Assembly (NCBI GenBank): GCA_913020395.1 | Contig: CAJWCA010000001.1 | Span: forward strand, 1-47,491 | DNA from: an uncultured Cellvibrionales bacterium | Lineage (GTDB): Bacteria > Pseudomonadota > Gammaproteobacteria > Pseudomonadales > Cellvibrionaceae | Length of the DNA: 47,491 nucleotides | Direction: 5' to 3' | Shown: positions 2,067-38,222 of the stretch, piece after piece | Layout: each line of letters begins with the position of its first letter | Numbering within the stretch: position 1 is the first letter of the stretch | Translations under genes and position numbers: made by a program | Notes under the pieces: model-generated | What the model saw: only the letters and a program-made list of their open reading frames with translations | Told to the model about the DNA's origin: nothing | Database searches by the model: none

Positions 2067-2212
2067 AGGGGTACAGTTCTTAAAAAAACGGGGGGAACAG
2101 ATGGCTCCCGCAGCGCATCTGTGCACTAATATATATCATTTTTTGAATCTGTACACCTTTTGGCCTAAGGCATAGACTGCTGAGCATTAAATCCAAGCTA
2201 CTGGTCGCGTCG

Positions 2213-3637
2213 ATGTCTGAAATGATTCCTGCAATTGAAATTGACTCCACGTCGGGTAAAACCGATTCCGGTGTCCGCTATATAGACACCTACCAGTCTG
2301 AAAACAAAATTTACACTCGTCGTATCGAGGGTTTCTATCAGCGCCTGAGGCGTTATACCGGTATTCCACTGCTCCTGTCCTTTTTATTAATTCCCTGGAT
2401 TCCCATAGACGGTCGACCGGCCATGTTGTTTGATTTGTCCGAACAGAAATTCCACATTTTCTGGATGACCTTCTGGCCACAGGACGGCATTTTGTTAGCG
2501 GGTCTGTTAATCATTGCCGCCTTTCTTCTGTTTGCCGTCACGGTGCTGGTGGGTAGGGTTTGGTGTGGGTTTACCTGCCCCCAGACGGTTTGGACAATGA
2601 TGTTTATCTGGGCGGAAGACAAATGTGAAGGCGACAGGAATCAGCGTATTAAACTCGACCGACAGCCGTGGAGTTTGAAAAAGCTGTTGCGCAAAGGCAG
2701 CAAACACACCATCTGGTTGGTGATTGCCCTGATAACCGGCCTAACGTTCATTGGGTATTTCTACGGTATTCAACAGCTGATCGTTGATGTGTTTACGTTT
2801 CATGCATCGGGTGAGACGTATTTCTGGGTATTATTTTTTACCGCGTTCACATATCTAAATGCGGGTTGGTTGCGAGAGCAAGTCTGCAAATATATGTGCC
2901 CCTACGCTCGCTTTCAGTCTGCGATGTATGACAAAGATACATTGCTGGTGACCTATGATCACGCCCGTGGTGAGCAACGCGGCCCACGAAAATCCGGCAC
3001 AGATTACCGGGCCGACGGCTTGGGCGATTGCATTGACTGTAGTTGGTGTGTGCAGGTGTGCCCGGTTGATATCGATATTCGCGACGGTCTGCAATACGCG
3101 TGTATCGACTGTGGTTTGTGTGTCGATGCCTGTAACAGTGTGATGGATAAAATGGGGTATGAGCGCGGGCTGATTCGCTTTGCGACCGAGGCTGCCATGG
3201 AAACTGGCCAGACTCGTATTTTTCGCCCACTCATGATCGGATACTTTCTCCTGGTTTTGATCATGCTTGGGTTTTTTGTTTACGTGACGGCTACTCGTAC
3301 GCCGGTGGGTGTTGATGTGGTACGCGACCGGGGTGTGCATTTGTTTCGTCGCGTGGGTACCAACATAGACAATGTTTATACCGTGAAGATCAACAACATG
3401 AGCCGCGGTGAGCAGACCTATACGGTGTCTGTGGAAGGAGCACACAGCTATAAGCTCAAGGGGCAGACTCGTGTATTGCTAGAGGAGGGGGAAGTATTGA
3501 CCGTTCCCATGCGTGTGCGAGTGCCGCAAGAGGCCTTGGCGAGCAGCAGCGAAGAGATTTATTTTGTTGTGCAATCCCAGCAAGACCCCTCCATTAGCGC
3601 AAGACAGAAGACCCGATTTATAGGGCCCAAAAAATGA
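2213..3637 (+). CDS. ccoG: CcoG/FixG/RdxA-family membrane 4Fe-4S ferredoxin-type protein
   Basis: Motifs: CGFTCPQTVW and CKYMCPYARFQSAM. Two ferredoxin Cys clusters are present, CIDCSWCVQVCPVDIDIRDG and CIDCGLCVDACNSVM. There are several TM segments and a C-terminal IG-like domain. Confidence 0.85.
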   Translation: MSEMIPAIEIDSTSGKTDSGVRYIDTYQSENKIYTRRIEGFYQRLRRYTGIPLLLSFLLIPWIPIDGRPAMLFDLSEQKFHIFWMTFWPQDGILLAGLLIIAAFLLFAVTVLVGRVWCGFTCPQTVWTMMFIWAEDKCEGDRNQRIKLDRQPWSLKKLLRKGSKHTIWLVIALITGLTFIGYFYGIQQLIVDVFTFHASGETYFWVLFFTAFTYLNAGWLREQVCKYMCPYARFQSAMYDKDTLLVTYDHARGEQRGPRKSGTDYRADGLGDCIDCSWCVQVCPVDIDIRDGLQYACIDCGLCVDACNSVMDKMGYERGLIRFATEAAMETGQTRIFRPLMIGYFLLVLIMLGFFVYVTATRTPVGVDVVRDRGVHLFRRVGTNIDNVYTVKINNMSRGEQTYTVSVEGAHSYKLKGQTRVLLEEGEVLTVPMRVRVPQEALASSSEEIYFVVQSQQDPSISARQKTRFIGPKK

Positions 3638-3710
3638 TTTTATGCATGAGTGAATAAATGGGAATCAAAATTGGGTTTGATGTTCGAGTGAAAAATAGAA
3701 AGAAGGTTTT

Positions 3711-5381
3711 ATGTACATTTACGATGAATATGATCACCGCTTAGTGAGTGAGCGAGTTGCGCAATTTAGTGGGCAGACTGCCCGTTACCTGTCGGGGGAG
3801 TTGAGTGATGAGGAATTTTTGCCACTGCGTTTGCAGAACGGCGTATACATTCAACGCCTGGCGCCTATGTTGCGAATTGCCGTGCCCTACGGAATGTTGT
3901 CCGCCCGGCAGCTGAGAAAACTGGCGCATATCAGCAGAGCCTATGACAAAGGTTATTGTCATATCACCACACGTCAGAATGTGCAGTTTAACTGGCCGAA
4001 GATTGAAGACATACCCGCTTTGCTGTCTGAATTGGCAGAGGTTGAGATGCACGCGATTCAAACCAGTGGCAATTGCATTCGCAACATTACCTCAGATCAA
4101 TACGCGGGCGTGGCGAAGGATGAGCTTATTGACCCAAGACCCTATTGTGAGATGGTGAGACAGTGGTCAACGCTGCACCCGGAATTCGCCTATTTGCCGC
4201 GAAAGTTCAAGATTGCCATCAGTGGTTCTGCGGGTGATCGTGCAGCTACACACTTTCACGATATTGGTTTGCAGTTGGAAACGGATAATCATGGGGCTGT
4301 GGGTTTTCGGGTATTGGTTGGGGGTGGGCTTGGGCGAACACCCGCGATAGCGCCGGTGATTCGGGAGTTCCTGCCGGAAAAATACTTGCTGTCCTATCTC
4401 TGTGCGATATTGCGAATCTATAACCGTCTTGGGCGACGGGACAACAAGTACAAGGCCCGGATAAAAATACTTGTACGCTCAATGGGCGTTAAACACTTCT
4501 CTGAAGCCGTCGAGCACGAGTGGCATCAAATTAAAGATGATTATTCTCCTCTCTCTGCGGAAGATGTAAGTGACATGGCATCCTTCTTCACTGCGCCCGG
4601 CTATGACATAGTGGACGAGCACAATGCTCTGCAGCAGCTAGACCTACAGACCCGCGGGAACGTCGCCTTTGAGCGCTGGTTGCTGCGCAATGTGAATGAA
4701 CACCGGATGGCGGGCTACCGAACCGTCACGCTGTCTCTTAAACCTTCCGGTGTGGCGCCGGGGGATATCACTGACAGGCAGCTAGAAGCGGTGGCAGATC
4801 TGGCAGAGCAGTTTTCGTTTGGTGAAGTGAGGACAACCCATACACAAAATATTGTTTTAGCTGATGTGAAAGTGAGCGAGCTCTTTGCGCTTTGGCAGCA
4901 GGCCAAACGGTACGGTTTCGCTACACCCAATATAGGAGCGCTGACAGACATTATTTGTTGTCCGGGTGGGGATTACTGTTCGCTGGCTAATGCAAAATCA
5001 ATCCCCGTCTCGTCTGCTATTCAACGTACGTTTGATGACATGGATTACGTTTACGATCTGGGTGACATTTCTCTAAATATCTCCGGTTGCATGAATGCCT
5101 GTGCCCATCACCATATCGGTCATATTGGTATTCTTGGCGTCGATAAAAAAGGTGAGGAGTTCTTTCAGATAACACTCGGGGGCAGTGGTGGAAGCGAATC
5201 ACGCGCGGCCTCAATTGGCAAGGTGTTGGGGCCGGCTTTTTCAGCTGATGAGGTGCCGCAGGTTATTGGGGACATCTTGCAGGTTTATGTTGAACATCGT
5301 ATTGAAGGCGAGTTGTTTATAGATGTTTATGATCGGCTCGGGAAGGGCATTTTTAAGCAGGGTGTTTATGGGAAAAAATAA
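3711..5381 (+). CDS. cysI: Sulfite (nitrite/sulfite family) reductase hemoprotein, Pseudomonas CysI-like
   Basis: N-terminus MYIYDEYDHRLV...RLQNGVYIQRLAPMLRIAVPYG...HITTRQNVQFNW, a duplicated NIR_SIR ferredoxin-like repeat, and the sirohaem/4Fe-4S cysteine cluster CCPGGDYCSLA...SGCMNACAHHH. Confidence 0.85.
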   Translation: MYIYDEYDHRLVSERVAQFSGQTARYLSGELSDEEFLPLRLQNGVYIQRLAPMLRIAVPYGMLSARQLRKLAHISRAYDKGYCHITTRQNVQFNWPKIEDIPALLSELAEVEMHAIQTSGNCIRNITSDQYAGVAKDELIDPRPYCEMVRQWSTLHPEFAYLPRKFKIAISGSAGDRAATHFHDIGLQLETDNHGAVGFRVLVGGGLGRTPAIAPVIREFLPEKYLLSYLCAILRIYNRLGRRDNKYKARIKILVRSMGVKHFSEAVEHEWHQIKDDYSPLSAEDVSDMASFFTAPGYDIVDEHNALQQLDLQTRGNVAFERWLLRNVNEHRMAGYRTVTLSLKPSGVAPGDITDRQLEAVADLAEQFSFGEVRTTHTQNIVLADVKVSELFALWQQAKRYGFATPNIGALTDIICCPGGDYCSLANAKSIPVSSAIQRTFDDMDYVYDLGDISLNISGCMNACAHHHIGHIGILGVDKKGEEFFQITLGGSGGSESRAASIGKVLGPAFSADEVPQVIGDILQVYVEHRIEGELFIDVYDRLGKGIFKQGVYGKK

Positions 5382-6426: not shown

Positions 6427-6843
6427 TTATTGTTGTTTAACAAACTTCTTAACGATCGCTTTACGTGCGGCTGCCACATCGGGCAGGGTCTTGCTGCGCA
6501 CAGCGCTCACTTCAGTAGCAGTGTACAAGACAAAGTCCGCGGGCAACTCCTTCTTGCTTTTGGTCAGAAGAATCCAGTTTAACAGCTCCGCCAGGGCCTC
6601 GTCGTTCAGTGGAGCATTGGCAGATCCGGGCACCTGAACCAGAAACTCCCTGCCTCCTGGCACACCGATGAACTGACCCACAAAGTTTTGCATGTTGGGA
6701 ACACTGCCTGGCAGGCCGCTGCCATCGCCTTGGTGACAGCCCTGGCAATTGAGCATGTAGTTCGCTTCGGCCCTTTTTTCATCGACGGCAGCGGTACACA
6801 CCATCGTTATGCCTGAGAGAATTACCGCCAGCAGTGTTTTCAT
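6427..6843 (-). CDS. Monohaem c-type cytochrome, periplasmic
   Basis: Signal peptide MKTLLAVILSGITMVCTAA and a single CQGCH haem-binding motif. It is a paralogue of the upstream cytochrome (shared ...DGxGxPGxxPn/l... and ...LxDxLNw/y... blocks). I trimmed the start to the ATG at 6841-6843, because the track ORF extension overlaps the upstream gene. Confidence 0.75.
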   Translation of the reverse strand: MKTLLAVILSGITMVCTAAVDEKRAEANYMLNCQGCHQGDGSGLPGSVPNMQNFVGQFIGVPGGREFLVQVPGSANAPLNDEALAELLNWILLTKSKKELPADFVLYTATEVSAVRSKTLPDVAAARKAIVKKFVKQQ

Positions 6844-6853
6844 TGGGCGCTCC

Positions 6854-7342
6854 TTAAAAAAGTTCAGGGTAGGTTGCTGCCAAGGGTAAGCGCAGGCTTG
6901 CGGAATGGGCAGCGCTGCTTTTAGTGGATTTTGCCTTAATGGCGGCCACCTCCTCTGCGGTATAGGGCTTCCAGTCTTTGGCGACGTGCTTTGCATCCAA
7001 AACCAGAACCGAGTAGTTCAGCACGTCACTTAAGCTCTGATCATCAAGCCCCGCACCTTGGGCTGGCATTACCCCCATGTAGGGCGTACCGCCAACGTTT
7101 ATGGGACCCATTAGCCCAGCGTCTATCACTTCCACCAGGTAGTTGCGACCCAGATCAGTGGCGGCAATACCCGCCATACGATTTTTGAGTGGAGGGAAAG
7201 CCCCTGGAATGCCCTGGCCGTCAGTCAGGTGGCAGGCAACGCAGCGTTGAAAGGGCTTGCTGCCGGCGTGTTGTTTTTCGGCCTGGGCAACACTTGCGCA
7301 GAGTAATATCGCGGCTATGGCTATCGAAAAGCGCGTCGTCAT
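6854..7342 (-). CDS. Monohaem c-type cytochrome, periplasmic
   Basis: Signal peptide MTTRFSIAIAAILLCASVAQA and the CVACH haem motif. Its start overlaps the mauA-like stop by 4 nt (ATGA), which suggests translational coupling. Confidence 0.8.
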   Translation of the reverse strand: MTTRFSIAIAAILLCASVAQAEKQHAGSKPFQRCVACHLTDGQGIPGAFPPLKNRMAGIAATDLGRNYLVEVIDAGLMGPINVGGTPYMGVMPAQGAGLDDQSLSDVLNYSVLVLDAKHVAKDWKPYTAEEVAAIKAKSTKSSAAHSASLRLPLAATYPELF

Positions 7343-7905
7343 TTGTTTGCTCCCTGATCCATTGCCACACCCAATATCACAGCCGTTGAACAGGTGTATA
7401 CATTGCTCTCAGTTCCCAGACACCAGTTGGTATCGTTATTGGTTTGTGCTCTGTAAATAGGTGTATCGTTTTCATTGCGATTGCACATGCAGCGCCCGCA
7501 GCTGGTTTTACCACAACAGTCATTGTAGGAAATGATGTAGTGAACACCGTCAGCGGGGTTTTGACAGGTACCAATCCAGGTAATTGGCGACATTTCGGTG
7601 CCGGGGGGGCAGCTGTTTTGGGTGCCTCCACAACAACTGCATAGGAATCCGTCAATGGCGCAGTAGCGCCAATAGTCACAGCTGGACGGATCGCCAGGGT
7701 CGCCGGCATTGCCGGTTGTTTGGGGTGCGACACCGGGGTAACCATTGCTGGCGCTGGGTGCAGCGCTGGCTCTGGAAACCGGTAGCAGTGGCATGCTTGC
7801 ACCCACAACCATAAGGGAGCCCAGTCGAGTGAGCAGGCTTCTGCGCGAGGTCTGTTGCGCTAGAGAGCGGGAGGATTTCTCGGTTAATTTATCGAGCCAG
7901 GTCAT
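7339..7905 (-). CDS. mauA: TTQ amine dehydrogenase light (small) subunit, MauA/AauA family
   Basis: Long Tat-type leader (SRRSLLTRLG...ASAAP). The Cys-rich mature domain CDYWRYCAIDGFLCSCCGG...CPPGTEMSPITWIGTCQNP...YNDCCGK...GRCMC...NDTNWCLG matches the MauA pattern. Both TTQ tryptophans are in their conserved contexts (ITW, TNWC). Confidence 0.9.
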   Translation of the reverse strand: MTWLDKLTEKSSRSLAQQTSRRSLLTRLGSLMVVGASMPLLPVSRASAAPSASNGYPGVAPQTTGNAGDPGDPSSCDYWRYCAIDGFLCSCCGGTQNSCPPGTEMSPITWIGTCQNPADGVHYIISYNDCCGKTSCGRCMCNRNENDTPIYRAQTNNDTNWCLGTESNVYTCSTAVILGVAMDQGANK

Positions 7906-7914
7906 GTCAGTCTC

Positions 7915-8535
7915 CTACGCCGCGTTGCTGTTGGATGTGCCGGGGGCGGCATTAAAATAATCCTGGATCGATGGGATACCCAGTTCCTTTGACTCAAATA
8001 AACTTTCAATATGTTCACGGGAGTTTACTAGTCCGTGGGAGGCTATGATTCCCTGCTCGTCAATCAATACAGCAAAGGGCAGCTTGGCCACGCCGTATCG
8101 CACACCCAGGTTTTTCGAAGATACATACTGCGCGTCTTCGAGACCATTTTGATGAATGTAGTTTTGATGTAGTGCCAGTTCGCCATCACTGGCGAAAATG
8201 ACGTCCATCCAGCTCGATTCTGCAGACTGGGCGGACCGCAAGCTCGGAAGTAAAGACTTACAAACTGGACAGTCTGGCGACATAAAAAACAGCAGCTGAC
8301 TTCGCCCTTTGGCGGGTTGGCCGGCCGTGATGGTTTTCCCGGAATTAAGGTCCTGCACGGGTACGTGTGGCGCATCTGCGCCGACTTCTAATGTTTGGTT
8401 CATCATCAGGGCGCCGGCGGGGGCCACTCTCTCATAGAGCACACCTATTTGACGGGTTAAGGCAAACACCAATACCGACAGCCCTAATAGCAGTACCCAT
8501 AATACAAGATTAGAAATGATCAGAATGTTATACAT
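7915..8535 (-). CDS. mauD: MauD-type thioredoxin-like protein for small-subunit maturation
   Basis: One N-terminal TM segment, a CPVC redox motif, GVLYERVAPAGALM and LVNSREHIESL blocks typical of MauD, and a position between mauE and mauA. Confidence 0.8.
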   Translation of the reverse strand: MYNILIISNLVLWVLLLGLSVLVFALTRQIGVLYERVAPAGALMMNQTLEVGADAPHVPVQDLNSGKTITAGQPAKGRSQLLFFMSPDCPVCKSLLPSLRSAQSAESSWMDVIFASDGELALHQNYIHQNGLEDAQYVSSKNLGVRYGVAKLPFAVLIDEQGIIASHGLVNSREHIESLFESKELGIPSIQDYFNAAPGTSNSNAA

Positions 8536-9067
8536 GATTGTGTACCTTTTGTTGTAGTTTGTTGTTGGTGCGCAGTTGTGTAAGAGAGTGGTAGAAGAAG
8601 ATAAAAACGACGGTGCTGGCCAGAGCCAGACTCCACGTTCCGAGACTAGTCGGGAGAAGCGTGCTGAAGTATCCCACCCAGCCGGCCATCATTACTAAGC
8701 CGACATTTCGGCCCACTAACCACAGACTGATCCCTTCTGATCGGGCGGGTCCGTTACACCCGCAATCTATATCGACCCTGCCTCTTTGAATATTGATCAG
8801 CATGCCGGCAGTGTAGGCGCTTAGAAGAAAAACCATGCCCGGTAATGCAAACTCTCTAGCAGCAGGAATGAGTAACGCGATGCCCAGTGTTATTTCTAAC
8901 AATGGAAGACTTTGCCCTAAAGGCCTGAGTAAGCCCTCGGGTACAACTCGATAGTTTTCAAGCGCCGCCCGAAAATGTTGAGGTGCGGAAAACTTATGCA
9001 GGGCGCTGTCCACAAACACATAACTTAAACTCAGAACCGCAACGGCGCTTATAAAAGACAGAATCAT
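8528..9067 (-). CDS. mauE: MauE-type integral membrane protein (DoxX-like)
   Basis: A four-TM protein of about 180 aa located between mauB and mauD. It overlaps mauD by 8 nt. Confidence 0.75.
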   Translation of the reverse strand: MILSFISAVAVLSLSYVFVDSALHKFSAPQHFRAALENYRVVPEGLLRPLGQSLPLLEITLGIALLIPAAREFALPGMVFLLSAYTAGMLINIQRGRVDIDCGCNGPARSEGISLWLVGRNVGLVMMAGWVGYFSTLLPTSLGTWSLALASTVVFIFFYHSLTQLRTNNKLQQKVHNHV

Positions 9068-9073
9068 GGCCGC

Positions 9074-10240
9074 TTACCTCTGTGCGTGAATGCTAAAGGG
9101 AGTGGAAGCAACATCGCCAATCATTTTTAACCACTCGCCGTTTTGGGGGTTGTAGATATCCATTTGCATAGAGGCATTAACTACGACCAAGTAAGGTTGC
9201 TTGCCGCTGGTTAATTCAATCGATACGCCCCATTGTTTTAGGGCAAAGCTGTTCACTCGTTTGCGTTTTTTGGGGTCATAAACCCATACTTCAGATCCAC
9301 CGCCTTTATGGCTGCCGTTGTAACCGTCTTTGTGCATGAGAATGTAGATAAGCCCACGGTCATTAACGGTGGCGATTTGCCATCCGCCGGGGCGCCAGTT
9401 TTCGGCTCGCTGCTGTTCGTTTAGCAATGACCAGGTTTGTTTAACAACGGGTGTTTTGCCGCTGAAGTCTATGGGCTGGATCTCGCCCTTGAAGCTTGGG
9501 AACCAGGCGGTTTTACCAATATAAACCGGTTTGTCGAACAGGGGATCGTCGTCTACGTCAAAAAAGGGCGAGACATTTTTCTGGTGTGTCAGGTTTCCTT
9601 TTTTATCGAACTGGGCGCTAAAGAGAGAGCCGTTACTGCACAGTGATGCAAAACCTCGTTTGCCTGCGGGATATACCAGCCCGCAGCCTGGAATCTGCGT
9701 TTCGCTTAAAATTTTACGGGAGTCCATATCAATCATTGTCACAGAAGCGGCGGGGGTAAAATTGAACAGCAATAAAAAGCGATCATTGTCGACCAGCTGT
9801 AAAGTGTATCGGTGGGCAACCACTTGGCCGCGTTTGGCTCCGGGCAGCGCAATTTCACCAATGCGTTTGAGGTGTTTTTTGTCGTAGATGGTTATTACGT
9901 CGGTGCGCTCGCCGCGAGTGCCACGCGCGTAAAATGATTCCGCAACATAGAGTTCTTCTTTGTGTCGGGATTCAATAAAACTGGCAAATTGCGCGGCATC
10001 TAATGCGCCTTTGTAGTTTCTGGTGCCAGGGGCTACGTCCACCAGAGCCACTTTTCCGGCCAATAGTGTTTCAAAATTTGAGTCGTGCACATAAATCAGG
10101 CTTTCGGGGTAGGTATCGGGCATGGTCTCTACGGCCGGCGTGGGCTCGGCAGGCAGATTGGCAGCCAGTACAGTGGCGGCACTCAAGCAGAGTGCCGCAG
10201 CGCTGGTGAATGTGGCTAGATTTCTTGAGAAATCCTTCAT
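9074..10240 (-). CDS. mauB: Amine dehydrogenase heavy (large) subunit, MauB/AauB family beta-propeller
   Basis: Signal peptide, a size of about 390 aa, and beta-propeller-like repeats. It is the first gene of a B-E-D-A order identical to the mau/aau clusters. Confidence 0.85.
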   Translation of the reverse strand: MKDFSRNLATFTSAAALCLSAATVLAANLPAEPTPAVETMPDTYPESLIYVHDSNFETLLAGKVALVDVAPGTRNYKGALDAAQFASFIESRHKEELYVAESFYARGTRGERTDVITIYDKKHLKRIGEIALPGAKRGQVVAHRYTLQLVDNDRFLLLFNFTPAASVTMIDMDSRKILSETQIPGCGLVYPAGKRGFASLCSNGSLFSAQFDKKGNLTHQKNVSPFFDVDDDPLFDKPVYIGKTAWFPSFKGEIQPIDFSGKTPVVKQTWSLLNEQQRAENWRPGGWQIATVNDRGLIYILMHKDGYNGSHKGGGSEVWVYDPKKRKRVNSFALKQWGVSIELTSGKQPYLVVVNASMQMDIYNPQNGEWLKMIGDVASTPFSIHAQR

Positions 10241-10292
10241 AGTGTTTTCCCACTCGGTTGTTGATGTTGGCTTGAGGGTGCAAATATAGTGT

Positions 10293-10340
10293 GGTCGACC
10301 TAAATTAATATGTCAATAGACCTAAAATTAATTTGTGACC
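10293..10340 (-). promoter_or_regulatory. Candidate promoter/operator of the mauB operon: TTGACA plus a TetR-type operator, in two tandem copies
   Basis: The reverse complement of 10293-10316 is TTGACATATTAATTTAGGTCGACC, 20/24 identical to 11158-11181. A second, degenerate tandem copy GACCTAAAATTAATTTGTGACC lies at 10319-10340. No good -10 hexamer is evident. Confidence 0.45.
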
Positions 10341-10386
10341 GACGACCGCGTGAAACGGCCGTAGAAGTGTTATTGCTTAAAGGGGG

Positions 10387-11049
10387 TTATTTGGGGATTT
10401 GACCAGAGCGTATCAGCCATAGGAAGGATTGGCAGGCCATTTCGATTATATTATCGGTTTCTTTCTTCCACGGTTTATTATAACCAATGAACATAGTGTG
10501 GCCCTCCATTGAGGCGGTGACAAAGAGCGCCAGGCGTCGCAATTGCTCTTCGTCTAATGCAGGGTTTAGTTGTCTCATTACATCGATCAAGGTAAGTCGA
10601 TAGCGTTCATACATCTGATCCATGAATTCATCGGCATGATCATTGTGGTTGGCTAAAGACCAGACTTCCGGAAAGAAATAAGTAGTGGTTTTTTTATTAA
10701 GATCGCTAATAACCACTTTAATAATAGCCTTAAACTGTGTCTCCGGGTCTTGCTCAGCCTCGTGTCGCAGTGCTTCAAACTGATTCAGGTAGCGCTGTAT
10801 GCAGTTGTCGAGCATTGCTTTGATCAAATTATCTTTATTGGGGAAATAGTATTGCAGATTGCCCAGTGTGATATTGGCGGCCTCTGCAATTTTTCTCAGT
10901 GAAAAATTGTGGTAGCCCTGATCGGTAATTAATTTCTCCGCAGCCAGCAATATCAATAGTGATGTTTGCTGGCCTTTGCCTGATTTTCCTCGCAAAGGGT
11001 TAGAATTTTCTGTTCTTGATGGTTTGGCCAATGTCATTAATCTCGTCAT
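10387..11049 (-). CDS. TetR/AcrR-family transcriptional regulator
   Basis: The HTH is FSLRKIAEAANITLGNLQYYFPNKDNLIKAML. I trimmed the start to the ATG at 11047-11049, which is preceded by GGAGGAAAAC (a strong Shine-Dalgarno). Confidence 0.85.
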   Translation of the reverse strand: MTRLMTLAKPSRTENSNPLRGKSGKGQQTSLLILLAAEKLITDQGYHNFSLRKIAEAANITLGNLQYYFPNKDNLIKAMLDNCIQRYLNQFEALRHEAEQDPETQFKAIIKVVISDLNKKTTTYFFPEVWSLANHNDHADEFMDQMYERYRLTLIDVMRQLNPALDEEQLRRLALFVTASMEGHTMFIGYNKPWKKETDNIIEMACQSFLWLIRSGQIPK

Positions 11050-11157
11050 TGTTTTCCTCCGGCACATCCGGAGGGGGTTGCTGTTACTGGTGTTTAAGCT
11101 AGTGTAACTGCTTATACCCTCAATAAACATATTAGTTGTGTCAAAAAAACAATACAG

Positions 11158-11191
11158 TTGACATATTAAATACGATCGACCTAATATAGTG
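11158..11191 (+). promoter_or_regulatory. Sigma70-type promoter with an overlapping operator for the TonB-receptor/CoA-ligase operon
   Basis: TTGACA (11158-11163), an 18-nt spacer and TAATAT (11182-11187), about 40 bp upstream of the ATG at 11230. The spacer carries the TCGACC half also found upstream of mauB. Confidence 0.55.
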
Positions 11192-11229: not shown

Positions 11230-13593
11230 ATGAGAGTTGCCGATAAGACTAAGATACTTGCTGGCCTAAGTGTCCCCATGCTTGCCTTAAGTGTCGATAT
11301 TCACGCCCTGGTGTTAGAAGAGATTGTTGTCACCGCACAGAAGCGGGAGCAAAGCCTGCAGGATGTCGGCATCGCGGTCACGGCCTACACGGGCGATCAG
11401 TTGAAAGCTCTGGGATACGACAATGCCCAGCAGATAACACAGCAGTCGCCGGGTGTGACCACCATCCAGCCCAACGGTCCTTCCTCCTTTTTTCTCAGTG
11501 TTCGCGGTGTCGCGCAAAATGACTTTTCAGGCGATCACCAGGAGTCACCGGTGGCGATCTATGTTGATGAGGCTTATATCAGTGCTGCATCAGGTGCGGG
11601 TTTCCAGTTGTTTGATATGGAGCGTGTAGAGATATTGCGCGGCCCGCAAGGCACGCTGTTTGGGCGCAATGCAACGGGTGGTCTGGCTCACTATATTACC
11701 AACAAACCCGGAGATGAGGTCGAGGGTTATGTTGACCTGACCATGGGGGAATATGATCAAGTGGTATTGGAAGGTGCGGTGGGAGGCCCCATCAGTGACA
11801 CCGTGTCCGGTAGAATTTCTTTCCTTCACAATGATCACGACGGTTATATTGATAACCGTATTGGCACAGACTTGAATAATGGTGATGACTGGGCCGTGCG
11901 TGGGCATTTGCAAATTGATTTGAGCGAAGATGTGAGCTGGTTGCTGACCGCAAAGGCGGCTGAGCAAGATATTAATTCAGGCTTTTTTAAACACAGTTCC
12001 GCGCGTCAAAACCCAGCGACGGGTTTGGGCGAGCATTTCTCCGGATCTGATTTACAGGGTGATGGCGACTCCCTCGCTACAGCATACCAAGACAGCTCCA
12101 GTGATGTGCATTCCGGAGAATACAACCTGATTGGACACAACAAACTCGAAACCTCAGGGCTGACCAGTAATATCCAATGGTCAAATGGGGGTTTGGATTT
12201 TGCTTTTGTGACTGACTTCTTTAGCCTGGAAAAAGATTACCTTGAGGATTCTGATGCTTCACCGAATGATTTTTTTGCCTTTTATCTAAAAAGTGATCTC
12301 GACCAGTTTTCTCAGGAAGTGCGTGTTAGTGGATCATCCGACTCTCTCCAGTGGGTCGGCGGCATTTATTATCTGAGCGTCGATGGTGATTTTGAGAATG
12401 GCGGCGCCGCCGGCAACTTCTTTGGCGCAGCATTTCCAGGATTTGGGCTGGGTGGCACAAACATCGGTTTATACAATCCTTTTTCAACAGAAACTGATTC
12501 GGTCTCAGTGTTTGGTCAGGCAGAATTTTCGTTGAAGGAAAACCTGACCTTAATTGCGGGTCTCCGGTGGACCAAAGAGAAAAAAGAAACAGACTTTATT
12601 CAATATGCCGCAGAATTTGCCAACCCGGCCACAAGTGATGTGGTTGGCAACGACTTCTTGGGAATAGGCGGAGCCTTGTTTACTTTTAACCCCTCTGAAG
12701 TGACTAACGATCCCGGCGGCACAGCGTTTGGGTTTCCACTGGTGTTGGGTAACCCTGGTGATGCCAAAAAAGACGACGATCTAATCACCGCCAAGCTCGA
12801 GCTAGATTGGCATGTCAATGCAGATACGCTGGTTTATGCCAGTTACAATCGTGGTATTAAAGGGGGGGGATTTAACGCTCCTCTGGATGCGACCAATTTT
12901 TACGATGGCGATCCATCTACCGGTGGTCCTGAAGATATGGCATTTGACGAAGAGGTATTGAATGCCTACGAAACGGGATTCAAATTGTCCTTCGCAGACG
13001 GTCGGGCGCGACTTAATGCCACCGTTTATTATTACGATTATCAAGATTATCAGGCTTTCAGCCTGGAAGGTTTGACAACGTTTGTTTTCAATACCGATGC
13101 GGAAACCTACGGTGGCGAAATCGAATTGCAAGCCTCGCCGACTGAAGGGTTGGATATCATGTTTGGTGCATCTTACATAGACAATACGGTTGAAGATGCC
13201 TATCGCCTGCCTTCCGGTGAAACTCTTGACCGTGTCGCGGTGATGACACCGGAGTGGAGCTTCAATGGACTGGCACGATATGAGTGGGCCGCAATGGGTG
13301 GCAACCTGGCCATTCAGGCAGACTTCAACTACATGGGCGACCATTATTTCCAGTTGAAAAACTCCCCGGTCGGTGAAGAGGATGCTTATACCCTGGTTAA
13401 TGCACGGGTGACTTACACCAGTGGCGATGGCAATTGGAATGTCACGGCCTTCCTGGATAATGCAACGGACGAAGAATATCGCACCATGGTGTTTGACCTT
13501 GCTGGTCCCGCTTCTGGTGGCGGATTTGGTTTGGCGGAAAACTATTATGGCACGCCGCGCTGGTGGGGTGTGACGCTCGGATACAACTGGTAG
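11230..13593 (+). CDS. TonB-dependent outer-membrane receptor
   Basis: Signal peptide, TonB-box/plug LEEIVVTAQKREQSLQDVGIAV, the plug motif RVEILRGPQGTLFGRNATGG, a beta-barrel and the terminal ...TLGYNW. Confidence 0.9.
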   Translation: MRVADKTKILAGLSVPMLALSVDIHALVLEEIVVTAQKREQSLQDVGIAVTAYTGDQLKALGYDNAQQITQQSPGVTTIQPNGPSSFFLSVRGVAQNDFSGDHQESPVAIYVDEAYISAASGAGFQLFDMERVEILRGPQGTLFGRNATGGLAHYITNKPGDEVEGYVDLTMGEYDQVVLEGAVGGPISDTVSGRISFLHNDHDGYIDNRIGTDLNNGDDWAVRGHLQIDLSEDVSWLLTAKAAEQDINSGFFKHSSARQNPATGLGEHFSGSDLQGDGDSLATAYQDSSSDVHSGEYNLIGHNKLETSGLTSNIQWSNGGLDFAFVTDFFSLEKDYLEDSDASPNDFFAFYLKSDLDQFSQEVRVSGSSDSLQWVGGIYYLSVDGDFENGGAAGNFFGAAFPGFGLGGTNIGLYNPFSTETDSVSVFGQAEFSLKENLTLIAGLRWTKEKKETDFIQYAAEFANPATSDVVGNDFLGIGGALFTFNPSEVTNDPGGTAFGFPLVLGNPGDAKKDDDLITAKLELDWHVNADTLVYASYNRGIKGGGFNAPLDATNFYDGDPSTGGPEDMAFDEEVLNAYETGFKLSFADGRARLNATVYYYDYQDYQAFSLEGLTTFVFNTDAETYGGEIELQASPTEGLDIMFGASYIDNTVEDAYRLPSGETLDRVAVMTPEWSFNGLARYEWAAMGGNLAIQADFNYMGDHYFQLKNSPVGEEDAYTLVNARVTYTSGDGNWNVTAFLDNATDEEYRTMVFDLAGPASGGGFGLAENYYGTPRWWGVTLGYNW

Positions 13594-13602
13594 GGGCGTC
13601 TT

Positions 13603-15207
13603 GTGAGCAATTATCTTTCAGAAGTTGAAACCTTCACCTGGGAGCGTCCCAGCCATTACAATTTTGCCCGGGACGTAATCGATCGCTGGGCACAAGACCC
13701 CGACAAGGTGGCGCTGCGCTGGCTCGATGATAATGGGGCAGATTTGGCCCTGAGCTTCGCCGATATCAGCGAACGCTCACGCAAAGTTTGTAACCTATTG
13801 TCGGAGGCCGGCGTTAAACGAGGGGATACCGTTGTTGTGGTGCTGGGCCGTCAAACGGCTTGGTGGGAAGTATTGACTGCGTGCATTCGCATGGGTGTGG
13901 TGGCCTCGCCGGGCACCACTCAGTTATCTGCAAGGGATCTGGCTTATCGCGTAAATGCTGCAAACGCCAGCGCAGTGGTTACCGATTTAATGTGTGCAAA
14001 AAAGATCGATACCATTGTGGGTGAGTGCCCGACATTACAGACACGCATTCTTGTAGACGGGGAGCGTAGTGAGTGGATTGATTACGATCAGGCCCTGCTA
14101 TCTGCTTCGACCCACTTTGAGACTTGTAATACTCAGAGTGATGAAGACGCGCTGTGCTACTTTACCTCCGGTACCACTGGTTACCCTAAGATGGTTATGC
14201 ATTCGCACAGTTATGCCATTGGGCACCAGACCACCGGTCGTTTTTGGTTAGACCTCACACCCGATGACTTGCATTGGAACATCAGCGATACCGGTTGGGC
14301 CAAAGCTGCCTGGAGCAGTTATTTTGGGCCCTGGGCTTGCGGTGCTGCGTTGTTTGTACACCACACGAGTGGTTTCAACCCCGCCAAGACATTAGAAATG
14401 TTATCGGCATATCCTGTGACCACAATGTGTGGTGCTCCTACGATTTACCGCATGTTGGTTCAGCACCAACCTGAAACCCATCAATATCCATACTTGCGAC
14501 ACTGTGTGGGTGCGGGTGAACCGCTCAACCCTGAAATCATTGAGGTGTGGGAACGGGCAACCGGGCTTATTATTCGCGACGGTTTTGGTCAGACGGAAAC
14601 CACTTTGTTATGTGGAAACTTCAAGGGTGTTGAGCCGCGCTTTGGTTCAATGGGCAAGCCGGCACCCGGTATTGAGCTTGCTGTGGTTGACCTCGACGGG
14701 CAACCCGTGGCCACCGGAGTGGAGGGTGACATTGGTGTTAGGGTAAAACCCGTTGCTCCGCAGGGCTTGTTTAAGGAATACAAAGGCGAACCCGAACGAA
14801 CTGCTAGTTGTTTTCGCGGAGATTGGTATTTGACGGGCGATCGGGCAACCGTAGATGAAGATGGGTATTTTTGGTTTGTCAGTCGCGCGGATGACGTGAT
14901 TTTGTCTGCAGGTTATCGCATTGGTCCTTTTGAGGTGGAAAGCGCGCTAATAGAACATGATGCCGTGGCGGAGTCTGCGGTGGTGTCTAGTCCGGATGAG
15001 CAGCGTGGCGAAGTGGTGAAGGCGTTTGTGATATTGAGCCCTGGGCACGATGCCTCAGACACTCTGAAACTTGAACTACAACAACATGTGAAAGCCGTTA
15101 CCGCTCCCTATAAATATCCTCGCAAGTTGGAGTTTGTAGAGGAGTTGCCAAAAACCGTGAGTGGCAAAATTCGACGCATTGAATTGAGAGAGCGCGAGTG
15201 GGCTTAA
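13603..15207 (+). CDS. AMP-forming acyl-CoA synthetase (medium-chain/ACSM-like)
   Basis: GTG start 9 nt after the receptor stop. Motifs: AMP-binding YFTSGTTGYPKMVMHSH, DGFGQTET, YLTGDRA..DEDGYFWFVSRADDVI and PKTVSGKIRR. Confidence 0.85.
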   Translation: MSNYLSEVETFTWERPSHYNFARDVIDRWAQDPDKVALRWLDDNGADLALSFADISERSRKVCNLLSEAGVKRGDTVVVVLGRQTAWWEVLTACIRMGVVASPGTTQLSARDLAYRVNAANASAVVTDLMCAKKIDTIVGECPTLQTRILVDGERSEWIDYDQALLSASTHFETCNTQSDEDALCYFTSGTTGYPKMVMHSHSYAIGHQTTGRFWLDLTPDDLHWNISDTGWAKAAWSSYFGPWACGAALFVHHTSGFNPAKTLEMLSAYPVTTMCGAPTIYRMLVQHQPETHQYPYLRHCVGAGEPLNPEIIEVWERATGLIIRDGFGQTETTLLCGNFKGVEPRFGSMGKPAPGIELAVVDLDGQPVATGVEGDIGVRVKPVAPQGLFKEYKGEPERTASCFRGDWYLTGDRATVDEDGYFWFVSRADDVILSAGYRIGPFEVESALIEHDAVAESAVVSSPDEQRGEVVKAFVILSPGHDASDTLKLELQQHVKAVTAPYKYPRKLEFVEELPKTVSGKIRRIELREREWA

Positions 15208-15244
15208 ACGCAAACGGTTGAACCGCTAAGGAATAAACACGCAA

Positions 15245-16924
15245 ATGAATCTTAAAGAAAGTTATTGTCGTGGCCCCGAGAGTGACAACTTGCTCAATAT
15301 CACTATCGCCGAGGCTTTTGACTCAACGGTGGAGCAGGACCCAAACGCACTGGCTCTGGTGGTTGATCATCAGGGTGTTCGGTTGAACTACCGTCAGTAC
15401 CAGGACAAAATCAACCAACTGGCCGTGGGTTTGTTAAGTCTGGGTATTGGCTCCGGAGACCGGGTTGGCATCTGGTCACCCAATTGCCTTGAATGGTGTT
15501 TAACGCAGTTTGCGACCGCGAAAATTGGTGCTGTTCTGGTGTGTATTAATCCGGCCTATCGCAGTCACGAATTGGCCTACGCCCTAAATAAAGTGGAGTG
15601 CAAGGCACTGGTAAGTGCCGAGCAGTTTAAGGGCAGCCAATATTTGGATATCTTAAAAACTCTCGCCCCGGAGCTCGACAGCTGTGCACCCGGCAAGCTT
15701 GAATCTGAGAAGTTACCGCATCTGAAAACTCTCCTGCGCCTGGGTGATGGGACGACCCCAGGCTTTTTTAATTTCGACGACTTTTGCCATGAGGCGAGCC
15801 CTGAACAGTTGGCGCAATTGGCCGATGTGCAGGCGAGTCTGAATTGTGAAGACGCAATCAATATTCAGTTTACCAGTGGCACCACTGGCAACCCGAAAGG
15901 GGCAACCCTGAGTCATTACAATGTGCTAAACAACGGTAAGTTTGTGGGCGATGGCATGCGCCTGGGGCCAAAGGACAAACTGTGTATTCCCGTTCCTCTC
16001 TATCATTGTTTTGGCATGGTGATGGGCAACCTTGCCTGCATTACGCACGGTTCTGCGGCGGTGTTCCCGAGTGAGGGCTTTGATCCTGAAGCCACATTGC
16101 GGGTTGTTTCAGAACAGAAATGCACGGCATTGCACGGTGTGCCTACGATGTTTATCGCCGAACTCGATCACCCGTCTTTTAAGCAGTTTGATCTGTCTTC
16201 ACTGCGCACGGGCATCATGGCCGGTGCCTCCTGCCCAATTGAATTGATGAACCGCATTATCGAGAAAATGCACATGAAAGATGTGTTAATCGCCTATGGG
16301 CAAACCGAAACCAGCCCTGTGAATCACATGACATCCCACACCGATGCCATTGAGAAACGTGTTGCCAGTGTTGGTAGGCCGGGCCCCCATTTGGAAATTA
16401 AATTGGTGGACAGTGCTGGTGAGATTGTGGCGGCGGGAGAAAAAGGCGAGATTTGTGTTCGTGGTTACGCGGTTATGCAGGGTTATTGGAATGACTCACA
16501 GCAAACAGAAGAAACCATTGACACCGACGGCTGGTTGCACTCCGGGGACTTGGGAATCATGGATAGCCAAGGTTATACCGAGGTGGTGGGGCGCATTAAA
16601 GACATGATCATTCGAGGTGGCGAGAACATTTATCCGCGGGAAGTGGAAGAGTTTTTGTATTCTCATCCGGCGATTAAAGAAGTTCAGGTATTTTCGGTGC
16701 CAGAGGAAAAGTTTGGCGAACAGGTGTGTGCCTGGATTGAGCTCAATGATCACTCTGAGGCCGATGCCGAAGCCATAAAAAACTATTGCCGTGACAAAAT
16801 CAGTTATTTCAAAATTCCACAACACATCCGATTTGTGAGCGAGTTCCCCATGACGGTCACAGGGAAACTCCAGAAATACAAAATGCGTGAGGCCATGATT
16901 GAAGACCTTCAGTCTGCCCAGTAA
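15245..16924 (+). CDS. AMP-forming acyl-CoA synthetase/ligase (second, divergent paralogue)
   Basis: Motifs QFTSGTTGNPKGATLSH, YGQTETSP, HSGDLG..DSQGY..VVGRIKDMIIRGGENIYP and TVTGKLQKYK. Confidence 0.85.
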   Translation: MNLKESYCRGPESDNLLNITIAEAFDSTVEQDPNALALVVDHQGVRLNYRQYQDKINQLAVGLLSLGIGSGDRVGIWSPNCLEWCLTQFATAKIGAVLVCINPAYRSHELAYALNKVECKALVSAEQFKGSQYLDILKTLAPELDSCAPGKLESEKLPHLKTLLRLGDGTTPGFFNFDDFCHEASPEQLAQLADVQASLNCEDAINIQFTSGTTGNPKGATLSHYNVLNNGKFVGDGMRLGPKDKLCIPVPLYHCFGMVMGNLACITHGSAAVFPSEGFDPEATLRVVSEQKCTALHGVPTMFIAELDHPSFKQFDLSSLRTGIMAGASCPIELMNRIIEKMHMKDVLIAYGQTETSPVNHMTSHTDAIEKRVASVGRPGPHLEIKLVDSAGEIVAAGEKGEICVRGYAVMQGYWNDSQQTEETIDTDGWLHSGDLGIMDSQGYTEVVGRIKDMIIRGGENIYPREVEEFLYSHPAIKEVQVFSVPEEKFGEQVCAWIELNDHSEADAEAIKNYCRDKISYFKIPQHIRFVSEFPMTVTGKLQKYKMREAMIEDLQSAQ

Positions 16925-16951
16925 TAATAATGACGAGAAAGGATCAGTACT

Positions 16952-18376
16952 ATGAGTGATTACAAATTATTGATTGATGGAAAACTACTGGCGGTTGAAG
17001 ACAGCTTGCCGGTTATCAATCCCGCCGATGAAACACTGGTGGCGAACTGCCCTCTGGCAACCGGCGCTCATCTCGAAGACGCGGTCGCTGCAGCCAAAAG
17101 AGCGGGACCCGCCTGGGCGGCAAAGTCGTTTGCGGAACGTCGAGGAGCCTTATTAGCGATAGCGGATGTACTCAAGGCTAACGCTGAAGACCTGTCAACA
17201 CTTTTGACTCTTGAGCAGGGTAAACCCAAAGTGCAAGCAGATGCGGAAGTGGCATTCTCCGAAATATTTTGCCGCCATTTCGCCGATCAAAGTCTCGACC
17301 CAGAAGTACTGTTTGAAAATGAAGGGCAGCGAGTGGAGGTTCATCGCAAACCACTGGGTGTTGTAGCGGGCATAATGCCCTGGAATTTCCCTTTGTTAAT
17401 TGCCGTCTACAAACTGGCACCCGCATTGATTGTGGGTAATACCCTGTTGCTAAAACCCGCCCCCACAACGCCATTGTCGGTGTTGAAATTAGGCGAACTG
17501 ATTGCCGACATTCTGCCTCCAGGGGTGATTAATATTCTCACCGACAATAATGATCTGGGCCCTATGATTACCGCCCACAAAGATATCGCAAAAATTTCCT
17601 TTACGGGATCAACCCCCACCGGCAAGGCCATCATGGCGGCGGCTGCACCGACCTTGAAGAGGCTTACGCTTGAACTCGGTGGTAACGATGCCGCCATTGT
17701 GTTGGACGACGTAGATCCGAAACAAGCGGCCCAGGGTATCTTTGGTGCCGCTTTCCTCAACAGTGGCCAGGTTTGTATTGCACTTAAAAGACTCTATGTA
17801 CACGAGTCGATTTACGATGAGGTCTGTGAGGAAATTGCCGTGCTTGCCCGTGGCGCCAAAGTTGCCAATGGTTTTGACAGTGGTGCTGAGTTTGGTCCGG
17901 TACAAAACCGTGCTCAATATGACAAGATTTGTAACTACCTTGTCGACGCTCGTGAACATGGCAATATCATTGCCGGGGGAGAGGTGAGTGATGAACCCGG
18001 GTTTTTTGTGCCGCTCACTGTCGTCAAAGATATCGAGGATGGCACTGCAGTGGTAGATGAAGAGCCCTTCGGCCCAATTCTGCCTATTTTAAAATTCAGT
18101 TCTGAAGCGGATGTTATTGCACGTGCAAATAACTCGGCTTATGGCTTGGGGGGGTCTGTTTGGTCGGCGGACCCGGAACGGGCCAGGCAATTGTCTCTAC
18201 AATTGGATTGCGGCACGGTGTGGATTAATCAGCACTGCGCTTTTGGGCCAAATATCCCATTCCCCCCCGCGAAGGAATCGGGTCTGGGGGTTGAGTGGGG
18301 TGAAGACGGCCTTAAGGAATTCACCGCTATGCAAGTCGTGAATATCAACACGGCCTATCAGGAGCCTGTTCACTAG
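16952..18376 (+). CDS. NAD(P)+-dependent aldehyde dehydrogenase
   Basis: The catalytic Glu lies in LELGGNDAAIV and the catalytic Cys in FLNSGQVCIALKRLYV. Also PWNFPL, FTGSTPTGK and EEPFGPIL. Confidence 0.9.
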   Translation: MSDYKLLIDGKLLAVEDSLPVINPADETLVANCPLATGAHLEDAVAAAKRAGPAWAAKSFAERRGALLAIADVLKANAEDLSTLLTLEQGKPKVQADAEVAFSEIFCRHFADQSLDPEVLFENEGQRVEVHRKPLGVVAGIMPWNFPLLIAVYKLAPALIVGNTLLLKPAPTTPLSVLKLGELIADILPPGVINILTDNNDLGPMITAHKDIAKISFTGSTPTGKAIMAAAAPTLKRLTLELGGNDAAIVLDDVDPKQAAQGIFGAAFLNSGQVCIALKRLYVHESIYDEVCEEIAVLARGAKVANGFDSGAEFGPVQNRAQYDKICNYLVDAREHGNIIAGGEVSDEPGFFVPLTVVKDIEDGTAVVDEEPFGPILPILKFSSEADVIARANNSAYGLGGSVWSADPERARQLSLQLDCGTVWINQHCAFGPNIPFPPAKESGLGVEWGEDGLKEFTAMQVVNINTAYQEPVH

Positions 18377-18557
18377 TGTGGGCGGGCCGGTAGTGCTTTC
18401 GAATTAATCATAAAGCCTCAAATGACCCACGCTGTTTTCTTAGAGAGTTTCCTGTATTGTGGTTATCGCAATACAGGACAAGGACGTGGCAGTGCAGAAA
18501 TGAGCTCCTTCTCCATTTTGTCAATTCTGATCGCAATGTCTACAAAAGGAGTTTTCT

Positions 18558-18875
18558 ATGGGTCAATATATTATTAGTTATCTCGGCGGCAATCAGCCCT
18601 CAACACCTGAAGAGGGCAAGCAGCATTTTGCCAAATATAAAGAGTGGTTATCGTCGCTGGGTGATTCGGTAGTCAGCCCGGCCAATCCCTTTAAAAATAC
18701 TACCGTGGTCAGTAGTGATGGCACGGTAACAACGGGCAGTCAAACGACAATGTCCGGATACACGATTATTACTGCTGAGTCTATGGATAAAGCATTGGAA
18801 GTGGCAAGAGCTTGTCCTTTCCTGGATATTGGTGGATCGCTAGAGGTATCAGAGCTGGTGCAGATGTCGGTCTGA
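18558..18875 (+). CDS. Small YciI/DGPF-like protein (tentative)
   Basis: A good Shine-Dalgarno (AAAGGAG) precedes the ATG. The 105-aa alpha+beta protein has the pattern ...YIISYLGG...KEWLSSLG...GYTIITAESMDKALEVARACPFL..GGSLEV, reminiscent of YCII-related proteins. This is from memory only. Confidence 0.45.
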   Translation: MGQYIISYLGGNQPSTPEEGKQHFAKYKEWLSSLGDSVVSPANPFKNTTVVSSDGTVTTGSQTTMSGYTIITAESMDKALEVARACPFLDIGGSLEVSELVQMSV

Positions 18876-18988
18876 CAACCAAGATAATTAAGCTTTTCGA
18901 AAATGGTGCCGGGCTAGCGATCCTTGGCCCAGCACCCACCCGCGCACGCTCTCCTTGAACAGAGGACCGTGGCGGTTTATTAAGGCAG

Positions 18989-38130: not shown

Positions 38131-38222
38131 ACCCGCTTGATATAGTTAGATCTAGTCTACAACCTCCAGAGTTGACCTTGTTTGTCGGTTGCTCATGGCC
38201 TAGATATAAACGGGAAATTGTT

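Follow-up and report, generated by a model that had tools for sequence, protein, structure and literature searches.

Does a sequence repeated on either side of a tetR-family gene tie the two flanking operons into one regulon, and, if so, what is the unit that the regulator recognizes? The question arises from a stretch of DNA of 47,491 bp (positions 1 to 47,491 of contig CAJWCA010000001.1, from an uncultured Cellvibrionales bacterium; hereafter, the window), in which tetR lies between a mau-like operon for a tryptophan tryptophylquinone (TTQ) amine dehydrogenase on the reverse strand and an operon for a TonB-dependent receptor (TBDR), two CoA ligases and an aldehyde dehydrogenase on the forward strand. 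A preliminary description of the window had reported a 24-bp element on both sides of tetR and proposed that it is the operator of the intervening repressor. The reading favored here, to which we assign a probability of about 0.8, is that the 24-bp element is a fragment of two pairs of operators for the TetR repressor encoded between them, and that the putative operator proper is a 16-bp imperfect palindrome in a 6-4-6 layout with the consensus TAGGTC-N4-G(A/T)(C/A)CTA, obtained by comparing about 80 related loci.

Expectation-maximisation was applied to the 300-bp tetR-upstream sequences of 45 loci, not including the window, and runs started from four different seeds arrived at one 16-bp motif. 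A run confined to the sense strand of tetR reads TAGGTCAAnYGTAYTA and has a correlation of 0.68 with its own reverse complement, and the Paraglaciecola copy is a perfect palindrome, TAGTACGTGTGTACTA. With the weight matrix built without the window, the top three of its ~47,500 positions all fall inside the intergenic regions flanking tetR: O_L1 (10309-10324, reverse strand; TAGGTC-TATT-GACATA, 14.3 bits), O_R2 (11168-11183, forward strand; AAATAC-GATC-GACCTA, 14.2 bits) and O_R1 (11150-11165, forward strand; CAATAC-AGTT-GACATA, 13.8 bits), in that order. A weaker site, O_L2 (10287-10302, reverse strand; TAGGTC-GACC-ACACTA, 8.7 bits), ranks eighth. Measured from start to start, the members of the right-hand pair (O_R1/O_R2) are 18 bp apart and those of the left-hand pair (O_L1/O_L2) 22 bp.

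The 24-bp element from which the question arose is a real repeat. Its copies, TTGACATATTAAATACGATCGACC at 11158-11181 on the forward strand and TTGACATATTAATTTAGGTCGACC as the reverse complement of 10293-10316, agree at 20 of 24 positions, with the TTGACATATTAA and TCGACC blocks matching exactly, and ATATAGTG is likewise shared (10284-10291 and 11184-11191), all as originally described. The two copies form the longest inverted repeat of the window (I1 in the repeat search), and the pattern TTGACATATTAANNNNNNTCGACC, allowing up to three mismatches, matches the window twice, both times at these 24-mers (shuffle expectation 0.02; two matches were reached in 0 of 100 shuffles). As a functional unit, the 24-mer was replaced by the 16-bp palindrome, present twice per promoter: motif finding, the alignments and isolated single sites in many loci all speak against the longer unit, and each 24-mer takes in the 3' half-site of one operator, the intervening gap and a portion of the neighbouring operator. 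The outward-facing arrangement of the copies stood in part. They do align when inverted, but they do so because the sites are partly symmetric (the GGTCGACC within O_L2 is itself a palindrome), and the four 16-mers share one polarity, all ending in GAC(C/A)TA when read on the forward strand. The second, degenerate tandem copy noted at 10319-10340 is likewise a true sequence repeat (direct repeat D8, in which 10302-10313 and 10325-10336 agree at 11 of 12 positions with a spacing of 23 bp) and extends into a half-site of O_L1; it scores below 3 bits against the motif, and a third operator there was rejected, no 16-mer beyond O_L1 reaching 3 bits.

Related loci were taken from an alignment-based scan of one genome per species, which gave 80 loci (L-numbers below) as 12-kb stretches; two metagenomic contigs, L081 and L082, are closer to the window and have exactly its gene order. 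Homologues of the TetR protein are numerous at 50-77% identity. By tblastn synteny, tetR is linked to the mau-like genes and to those for the TBDR, the ligases and the aldehyde dehydrogenase; at least three gene orders occur, and in many loci the TBDR, both CoA ligases and the aldehyde dehydrogenase are all linked to tetR. In the arrangement of the window, the TBDR gene is divergent from tetR and mauB lies downstream and co-directional; in a second, the mau operon is convergent with tetR and its promoter is 4 kb away (L003, L019, L023, L029-31); in a third, seen in Paraglaciecola, mauB is divergent from tetR. In all of the gene orders observed, the motif stands ahead of mauB, the TBDR gene and tetR, and the convergent and divergent orders are independent support for a motif that follows its predicted targets.

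The element is present in the same two intergenic regions of related genomes, as alignments of both regions (loci with TetR identity of 63-77%) make plain. Across seven loci, the sole invariant stretch of the tetR-TBDR intergenic region (alignment A2) is TAGGTC....GTA.T..ATATGTCAA..GTATT, of which ATATGTCAA..GTATT corresponds to O_R1 and TAGGTC....GTA.T to O_R2. The sole invariant stretch between tetR and mauB (alignment A3) is T.TAGGTCTATTGAC.TAT, which is O_L1; the 16-mer of O_L1 is identical upstream of mauB in L001, L002, L004, L007, L008, L081 and L082, and occurs as its reverse complement in L003. The loci closest to the window, L081 and L082, retain O_L2 as AGGTCGGCCACACTAT. In 590 kb of orthologous loci, 117 sites score at least 11 bits, and, assigned by nearest gene, 92 of them lie upstream of tetR, TBDR, mauB or CoA ligase genes (a single one of these precedes a CoA ligase gene). 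The mauB-upstream windows, on which the motif was not trained, contain 26 sites in 8.1 kb versus 27 in 591 kb elsewhere, a 70-fold enrichment whose binomial P of 2e-34 overstates the independence of the loci, since they are related; 22 of 27 such windows are occupied, including those of loci in which mauB is 4 kb from tetR and on the other strand.

The sites are placed over predicted promoter elements. The TBDR operon has a sigma-70 promoter at 11158-11187 on the forward strand (TTGACA at 11158-11163, a spacer of 18 nt and TAATAT at 11182-11187), already proposed in the preliminary description and here the best sigma-70-like match in the region (10/12). This promoter, in the form TTGACA-18-TAnnnT, is kept in seven loci (the window, L081, L082, L004, L003, L022 and L007) with TAATAT, TAAACT, TAAAAT or TATTAT as the -10 hexamer, and in these seven the -35 hexamer lies inside the first operator and the -10 hexamer starts with the last TA of the second. 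On the other side, the -35 TTGACA of the mauB operon (10311-10316, reverse strand) lies inside O_L1, and in orthologues it is followed after 16-18 nt by TATAGT, TATGCT, TATACT, TAATAT or TAGACT. The earlier remark that the mauB side of the window has no obvious -10 hexamer is fair. The candidates (10283-10293, reverse strand) are just CACACT (10293->10288, with a 17-nt spacer), which by eye sits in the A3 columns that hold TATAGT or TATGCT in orthologues, and TATATT (10288->10283, with a 22-nt spacer), which corresponds to TATCAT/TATTAT in L081/L082. O_L2 occupies the usual place of the mauB -10 hexamer in the window, L081, L082 and L088; in L004 and L007, this place holds the -10 hexamer TATAGT instead, and an operator-like GTGRTC-N4-GACCTA, recognized by eye and below the 11-bit scan threshold, lies just downstream.

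The mechanism that this placement suggests is an ordinary, textbook one, namely, a TetR repressor with palindromic operators over promoters, here in charge of a set of genes that appears uncharacterised. One TetR dimer would presumably occupy each 16-bp operator. On the TBDR side, O_R1 includes the -35 hexamer, and O_R2 fills the spacer and supplies the first two bases of the -10 hexamer; on the mauB side, O_L1 includes the -35 hexamer and O_L2 covers the -10 region. Without inducer, TetR on its operators would block RNA polymerase at both promoters and so co-repress one operon for the periplasmic TTQ amine dehydrogenase with two cytochromes c and another for outer-membrane uptake through the TBDR, oxidation of the aldehyde and activation of its acid product with CoA. 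The repressor would be released by a small compound belonging to the pathway; the amine, its aldehyde, the acid and the acyl-CoA are candidates. In this scheme, our inferences concern binding as such, the sign of the regulation (repression, not activation), the occupancy of each site by a single dimer, and the inducer.

An activating or dual role of TetR at the same sites is unlikely. A few activators are known in the TetR family, one of them, FasR, is among the weak NCBIfam matches of the protein, and the poor -10 hexamer of the window's mauB promoter might need assistance; in most orthologues, however, the sites overlap the -35 and -10 hexamers of near-consensus promoters in the classic geometry of repression. 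Given operators over both hexamers, repression by occlusion of RNA polymerase is therefore favored.

Co-localisation alone cannot name the binder, and autoregulation of tetR is not evident in the window, so that the 16-mers could be sites for a different regulator encoded elsewhere, pathway-specific or global, with the adjacent TetR acting on other targets. Loci in which the neighbourhood changes bear on this alternative. Most of the sites that are near none of tetR, the TBDR gene and mauB are located just downstream of tetR in loci devoid of mau genes. In all four such loci that were checked, the next operon encodes a quinohemoprotein amine dehydrogenase, with qhpA in 4/4 (L009 6705-8306; L016 6909-8616; L036 6398-7494; L006 6709-8462), followed by the radical-SAM gene qhpD in both loci in which it was scanned for (L009 and L016). 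The regulator and its putative operator stay with the function while the TTQ enzyme is swapped for one of the cysteine tryptophylquinone (CTQ) family, with the motif remaining beside tetR.

More distant loci, retrieved solely through the helix-turn-helix peptides NLQYY[FY]P[STN]K or GYHNFS[LM]R[KR], provide a second line of evidence. Their TetR proteins, from Myxococcota, Parvibaculum and Phenylobacterium, are 26-36% identical to that of the window; the loci were chosen as negative controls and turned out positive for TAGGTC-N4-GACCTA, 14 of 26 having a site that scores 14 bits or more in the 1.3 kb preceding tetR. In Corallococcus and Myxococcus, TAGGTCAATTGACCTA or TAGGTCATATGACCTA precedes by ~45 bp a saccharopine-dehydrogenase-like gene overlapping tetR; Parvibaculum has two motif copies directly before tetR, and Phenylobacterium has copies before a TBDR gene and upstream of mauB. 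Several of the sites in the distant loci are perfect palindromes, such as TAGGTCAATTGACCTA, in differing gene contexts; perfect or near-perfect copies lie beside tetR in Myxococcota and Parvibaculum (L064, L066, L068, L070, L074-L076 and L078, near 4800-4865; L056, 5948-5982; L062, 5897-5931). Among the loci retrieved through those peptides, the recognition helix is invariant. A palindrome shared, along with the helix-turn-helix, between unrelated contexts implies that the motif is tied to the DNA-binding domain rather than to the amine genes. A dyad of 16 bp in a 6-4-6 layout is, moreover, typical of TetR operators. A regulator encoded elsewhere is thus improbable, given that the motif accompanies TetR homologues with the same helix-turn-helix in unrelated neighbourhoods of Myxococcota and Alphaproteobacteria.

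The likeness of the two intergenic regions could also reflect no more than shared promoter architecture, a consensus -35 hexamer followed by an AT-rich spacer, with no dedicated operator. TTGACA is the sigma-70 -35 consensus, and both copies are located where promoters are expected. We regard this explanation as very improbable in view of conservation that reaches well beyond the hexamers to the TAGGTC and GTAYTA halves, of the dyad symmetry of the motif, of its stand-alone, perfectly palindromic copies in GC-rich myxobacterial DNA, and of sites that lie off the -35 hexamer, after the -10 hexamer, in L022 (15.7 bits) and, by eye only, in L004 and L007. That the inverted 24-mers are terminal inverted repeats of a small mobile cassette, as a pair (I1) flanking a single gene might suggest, was rejected as scarcely credible, contradicted by comparative data in which the sites stay with promoters across gene orders, by the lack of a transposase and by the single polarity of the four operators on the forward strand, which makes the inversion an apparent one due to dyad symmetry.

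Several observations weigh against operator pairs for the adjacent repressor. Single sites of 14 bits arise by chance in shuffled 47-kb sequence (the maximum under this null has a mean of 12.6 and a 95th percentile of 16.2 bits), and the argument therefore rests on location and conservation rather than on score. O_L2 is weak, at 8.7 bits, and conserved in the closest clade only, and the window's candidates for the mauB -10 hexamer match poorly or have the wrong spacing. For tetR, the candidate -10 hexamer with the best conservation is located on the downstream side of the operators, and hence autoregulation, which TetR repressors usually show, is not evident. Finally, the exact 18-mer TTAGGTCTATTGACATAT around O_L1 has 26 matches in metagenomes, 6 of them in tetR-mauB contexts and the remainder in ~11 unrelated AT-rich contexts; the latter are consistent with chance, and this test is uninformative beyond adding six more mauB promoters. 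With these points taken into account, the proposal of the preliminary description that the intervening TetR has its operators on both sides and that the two operons form one regulon is well supported computationally, by conservation, by placement over the predicted promoters and by association with the helix-turn-helix.

The tetR gene occupies 10387-11049 on the reverse strand and encodes 220 amino acids with TetR_N and TetR_C_6 domains (Pfam). Its frame stays open to 11130; ATG 11049 was taken as the likely start because GGAGG precedes it and homologues are 203-220 aa long. From this codon to ATG 11230 of the divergent TBDR gene is 180 bp, which fits the rule of thumb that a divergent neighbour within ~200 bp is a likely target of a TetR-family regulator. 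The mau-like operon is co-directional with tetR across a gap of 146 bp, in which terminator prediction gave none. The candidate -10 hexamer of tetR mentioned above, TATAAG (11111-11116, reverse strand), lies downstream of the operators in the sense of tetR; GGGTATAA is conserved in L081/L082, and TACAAT is found at a similar place in L003, L004 and L007. A consensus scan suggested another tetR promoter, TTGTTA-16-TATATT, which repressor on the operators would occlude; L081/L082 do not conserve it, and it was not relied on. A hairpin in the tetR leader (11053-11077, reverse strand; RNA fold -16.5 kcal/mol, z = -2.9) pairs the Shine-Dalgarno GGAGG; L081/L082 have a hairpin with other arm sequences at a similar position upstream of tetR, with z-scores that are not significant. 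TTGACA-22 nt-TATAnn occurs in both the tetR-proximal (11136-11144) and the mauB-proximal (10283-10316) regions, a likeness that is probably coincidental, the tetR-side TTGACA not being conserved in L081.

The protein is a canonical member of the TetR family, of a subfamily without a characterised member. TetR_N (PF00440) matches with E=6.8e-13 (48.6 bits, cut-off 24) and TetR_C_6 with 27.7 bits (cut-off 27), whereas the best NCBIfam matches, PsrA (57 bits, cut-off 300) and BetI (50 bits, cut-off 201), are far from their thresholds. The AlphaFold model (pLDDT 88.8) has nine helices, in line with the family's all-helical fold and its C-terminal domain for ligand binding and dimerisation, and a disordered stretch of 22 N-terminal residues; a fold search of the PDB returned 356 matches at E<=0.001, and the top 50 listed are all TetR-family proteins. 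Structure prediction, Foldseek and a PDB sequence search yielded generic TetR neighbours only and no clue to the ligand. The short dyad-symmetric 16-bp motif beside the regulator in nearly all orthologous loci is a trait of TetR-family operators; autoregulation is common, albeit not universal, in this family.

The closest mechanistic parallel is Tn10 TetR/tetO, where, as here, the repressor gene is divergent from its target and, in the intergenic region that the two share, a couple of short palindromic operators lie over the promoter hexamers; release by a small ligand is presumed. The target there is an efflux pump, whereas the regulon here would be one of catabolism and uptake, and a second pair of operators would serve an operon that follows tetR on the same strand. 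The operators have a sequence unrelated to tetO, autoregulation is not evident, and the resemblance of the proteins is confined to the helix-turn-helix (NCBIfam TetR, 20 bits versus a cut-off of 265). In terms of targets, the protein resembles PsrA, FadR of Bacillus and Thermus, BkaR and PaaR, regulators of catabolic operons with CoA ligase genes; FadR and BkaR occur among its structural neighbours, and PsrA is its best NCBIfam match. However, its scores are far below the family cut-offs and the TM-scores are 0.55-0.67, such that it is not a member of these families, none of which is known to control amine dehydrogenases or TonB-dependent receptors. A further lead is RutR of Escherichia coli, whose recognition-helix peptide, NLLYYFPSK, is similar to NLQYYFPNK here, and whose box is likewise a 16-bp palindrome of GGTCAA/TTGACC-like hexamers. 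The protein is not RutR (38 bits versus an NCBIfam cut-off of 368), the regulon differs, and so does the arrangement of hexamers, TTGACC-N4-GGTCAA for RutR versus TAGGTC-N4-GACCTA here.

The gene map given in the preliminary description, with tetR between mau-like and TBDR operons on opposite strands, agrees with the Pfam assignments. The TTQ amine dehydrogenase operon (6427-10240, reverse strand) consists of genes for the heavy chain, mauB (9074-10240), mauE (8528-9067), mauD (7915-8535), the light chain, mauA (7339-7905), a cytochrome c (6854-7342) and a second cytochrome c-like open reading frame (ORF) with a weak match (6427-6846). Among solved structures, the heavy chain is closest to aromatic amine dehydrogenase (154 bits versus 113 for methylamine dehydrogenase) and the light chain is equidistant (162 versus 164 bits); neither chain attains the cut-off of its NCBIfam methylamine dehydrogenase equivalog (heavy chain, TIGR02658, 140.8 versus 454.45; light chain, TIGR02659, 176.8 versus 196.85). 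By these assignments, the predicted enzyme is a TTQ dehydrogenase that should not be filed as methylamine dehydrogenase. The aau cluster of Alcaligenes faecalis and the mau clusters of methylotrophs have the same order of heavy chain, mauE, mauD, light chain and c-type cytochrome; here, the cluster ends in two c-type cytochrome genes. Accessory genes of mau clusters include mauG, mauF and the amicyanin gene, and the window ORFs of at least 150 aa that were scanned had no Pfam match to di-haem MauG, MauF or amicyanin.

The second operon (11230-18376, forward strand) encodes the TBDR (11230-13593), CoA ligase 1 (13603-15207), CoA ligase 2 (15245-16924) and the aldehyde dehydrogenase (16952-18376), all assigned by Pfam and NCBIfam and separated by intergenic gaps of 9, 37 and 27 bp. 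CoA ligase 2 passes the cut-off of PRK12583 ('fatty acid CoA ligase family'), and CoA ligase 1 is MbcS-like, below cut-off. These ligase assignments suggest an alkyl- or aralkyl-amine that would be oxidised to the acid and then converted to a CoA thioester. The classical aau and mau clusters are not known to be linked to genes for a TBDR, two CoA ligases and an aldehyde dehydrogenase. For genes of amine dehydrogenases and oxidases, the known regulators are MauR of Paracoccus mau (LysR type), QhpR of the qhp operon (AraC type) and FeaR of E. coli tynA/feaB (AraC type); they match the proposed role in that they exert substrate-dependent control over genes of periplasmic amine oxidation, but they belong to other protein families and are activators, in contrast to the putative TetR-type repressor here. 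No TetR regulator of mau, aau or qhp genes is known to us.

What these comparisons add is a precise operator, with the coordinates of four sites in the window, for a TetR subfamily without a characterised member, and a tie between three gene sets that are annotated separately: TTQ/CTQ amine dehydrogenases, the TBDR and the branch from aldehyde to acyl-CoA. A regulon defined by this operator may be new, subject to a check of the literature. More tentatively, and with the odds somewhat against it, the locus might form the centre of a regulon for amine utilisation that is widespread among marine Gammaproteobacteria and has not been described, in which a dedicated TBDR would import a primary amine (a kind of substrate not established for such receptors), TTQ and CTQ dehydrogenases would be interchangeable in oxidising it in the periplasm, the aldehyde dehydrogenase and CoA ligases would lead to acyl-CoA, and one TetR subfamily would act through a TAGGTC-N4-GACCTA operator found across phyla. 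Such a regulon could cover Halieaceae, Cellvibrionaceae, Alteromonadaceae and Arenicella, with relatives in Alphaproteobacteria. If confirmed, the operators and the regulation proposed for the window would name a regulator for the amine dehydrogenase genes of abundant marine heterotrophs, point to TonB-dependent uptake of an amine and offer a reporter system for a search for the natural substrate.

Some of the loci compared have features of their own. In some Haliea genomes (L001, L002, L101), two paralogous TTQ clusters with heavy chains ~41% identical flank tetR (at 976-4151 and 6844-10550 in L001). Of these, the one on the left follows the aldehyde dehydrogenase gene, which is separated from tetR by a stretch with a single operator site; another site is found upstream of the right-hand mauB. 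The contexts of the distant TetR homologues of Myxococcota and Parvibaculum (26-33% identical) include, besides the saccharopine-dehydrogenase-like gene, a Rieske protein.

Beyond the two operons of the window, a 612-bp gap (18377-18988) without an Rfam match separates the convergent aldehyde dehydrogenase and ribBA genes and contains an operator-like 16-mer (18391-18406, 9.9 bits) that is probably a chance match. Farther downstream on the forward strand, 25812-28676 encodes an Orn/Lys/Arg-decarboxylase-like protein of 954 aa whose catalytic domain begins at about residue 300, 29585-31351 and 38172-39935 encode two gamma-glutamyltranspeptidase paralogues, and 31759-34824 encodes a second TonB-dependent receptor, of 1021 aa; these genes may be connected with the metabolism of amines or glutamyl-amines. 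No tRNA genes were found in the window, and its sole Rfam match is a bacterial small signal recognition particle RNA (44278-44375, forward strand; RF00169, 76.8 bits). A LysR-family ORF of 418 aa (46026-47282, reverse strand) shows two HTH_1 stretches in the Pfam scan; its N-terminal domain may be duplicated, or its start may be over-extended.

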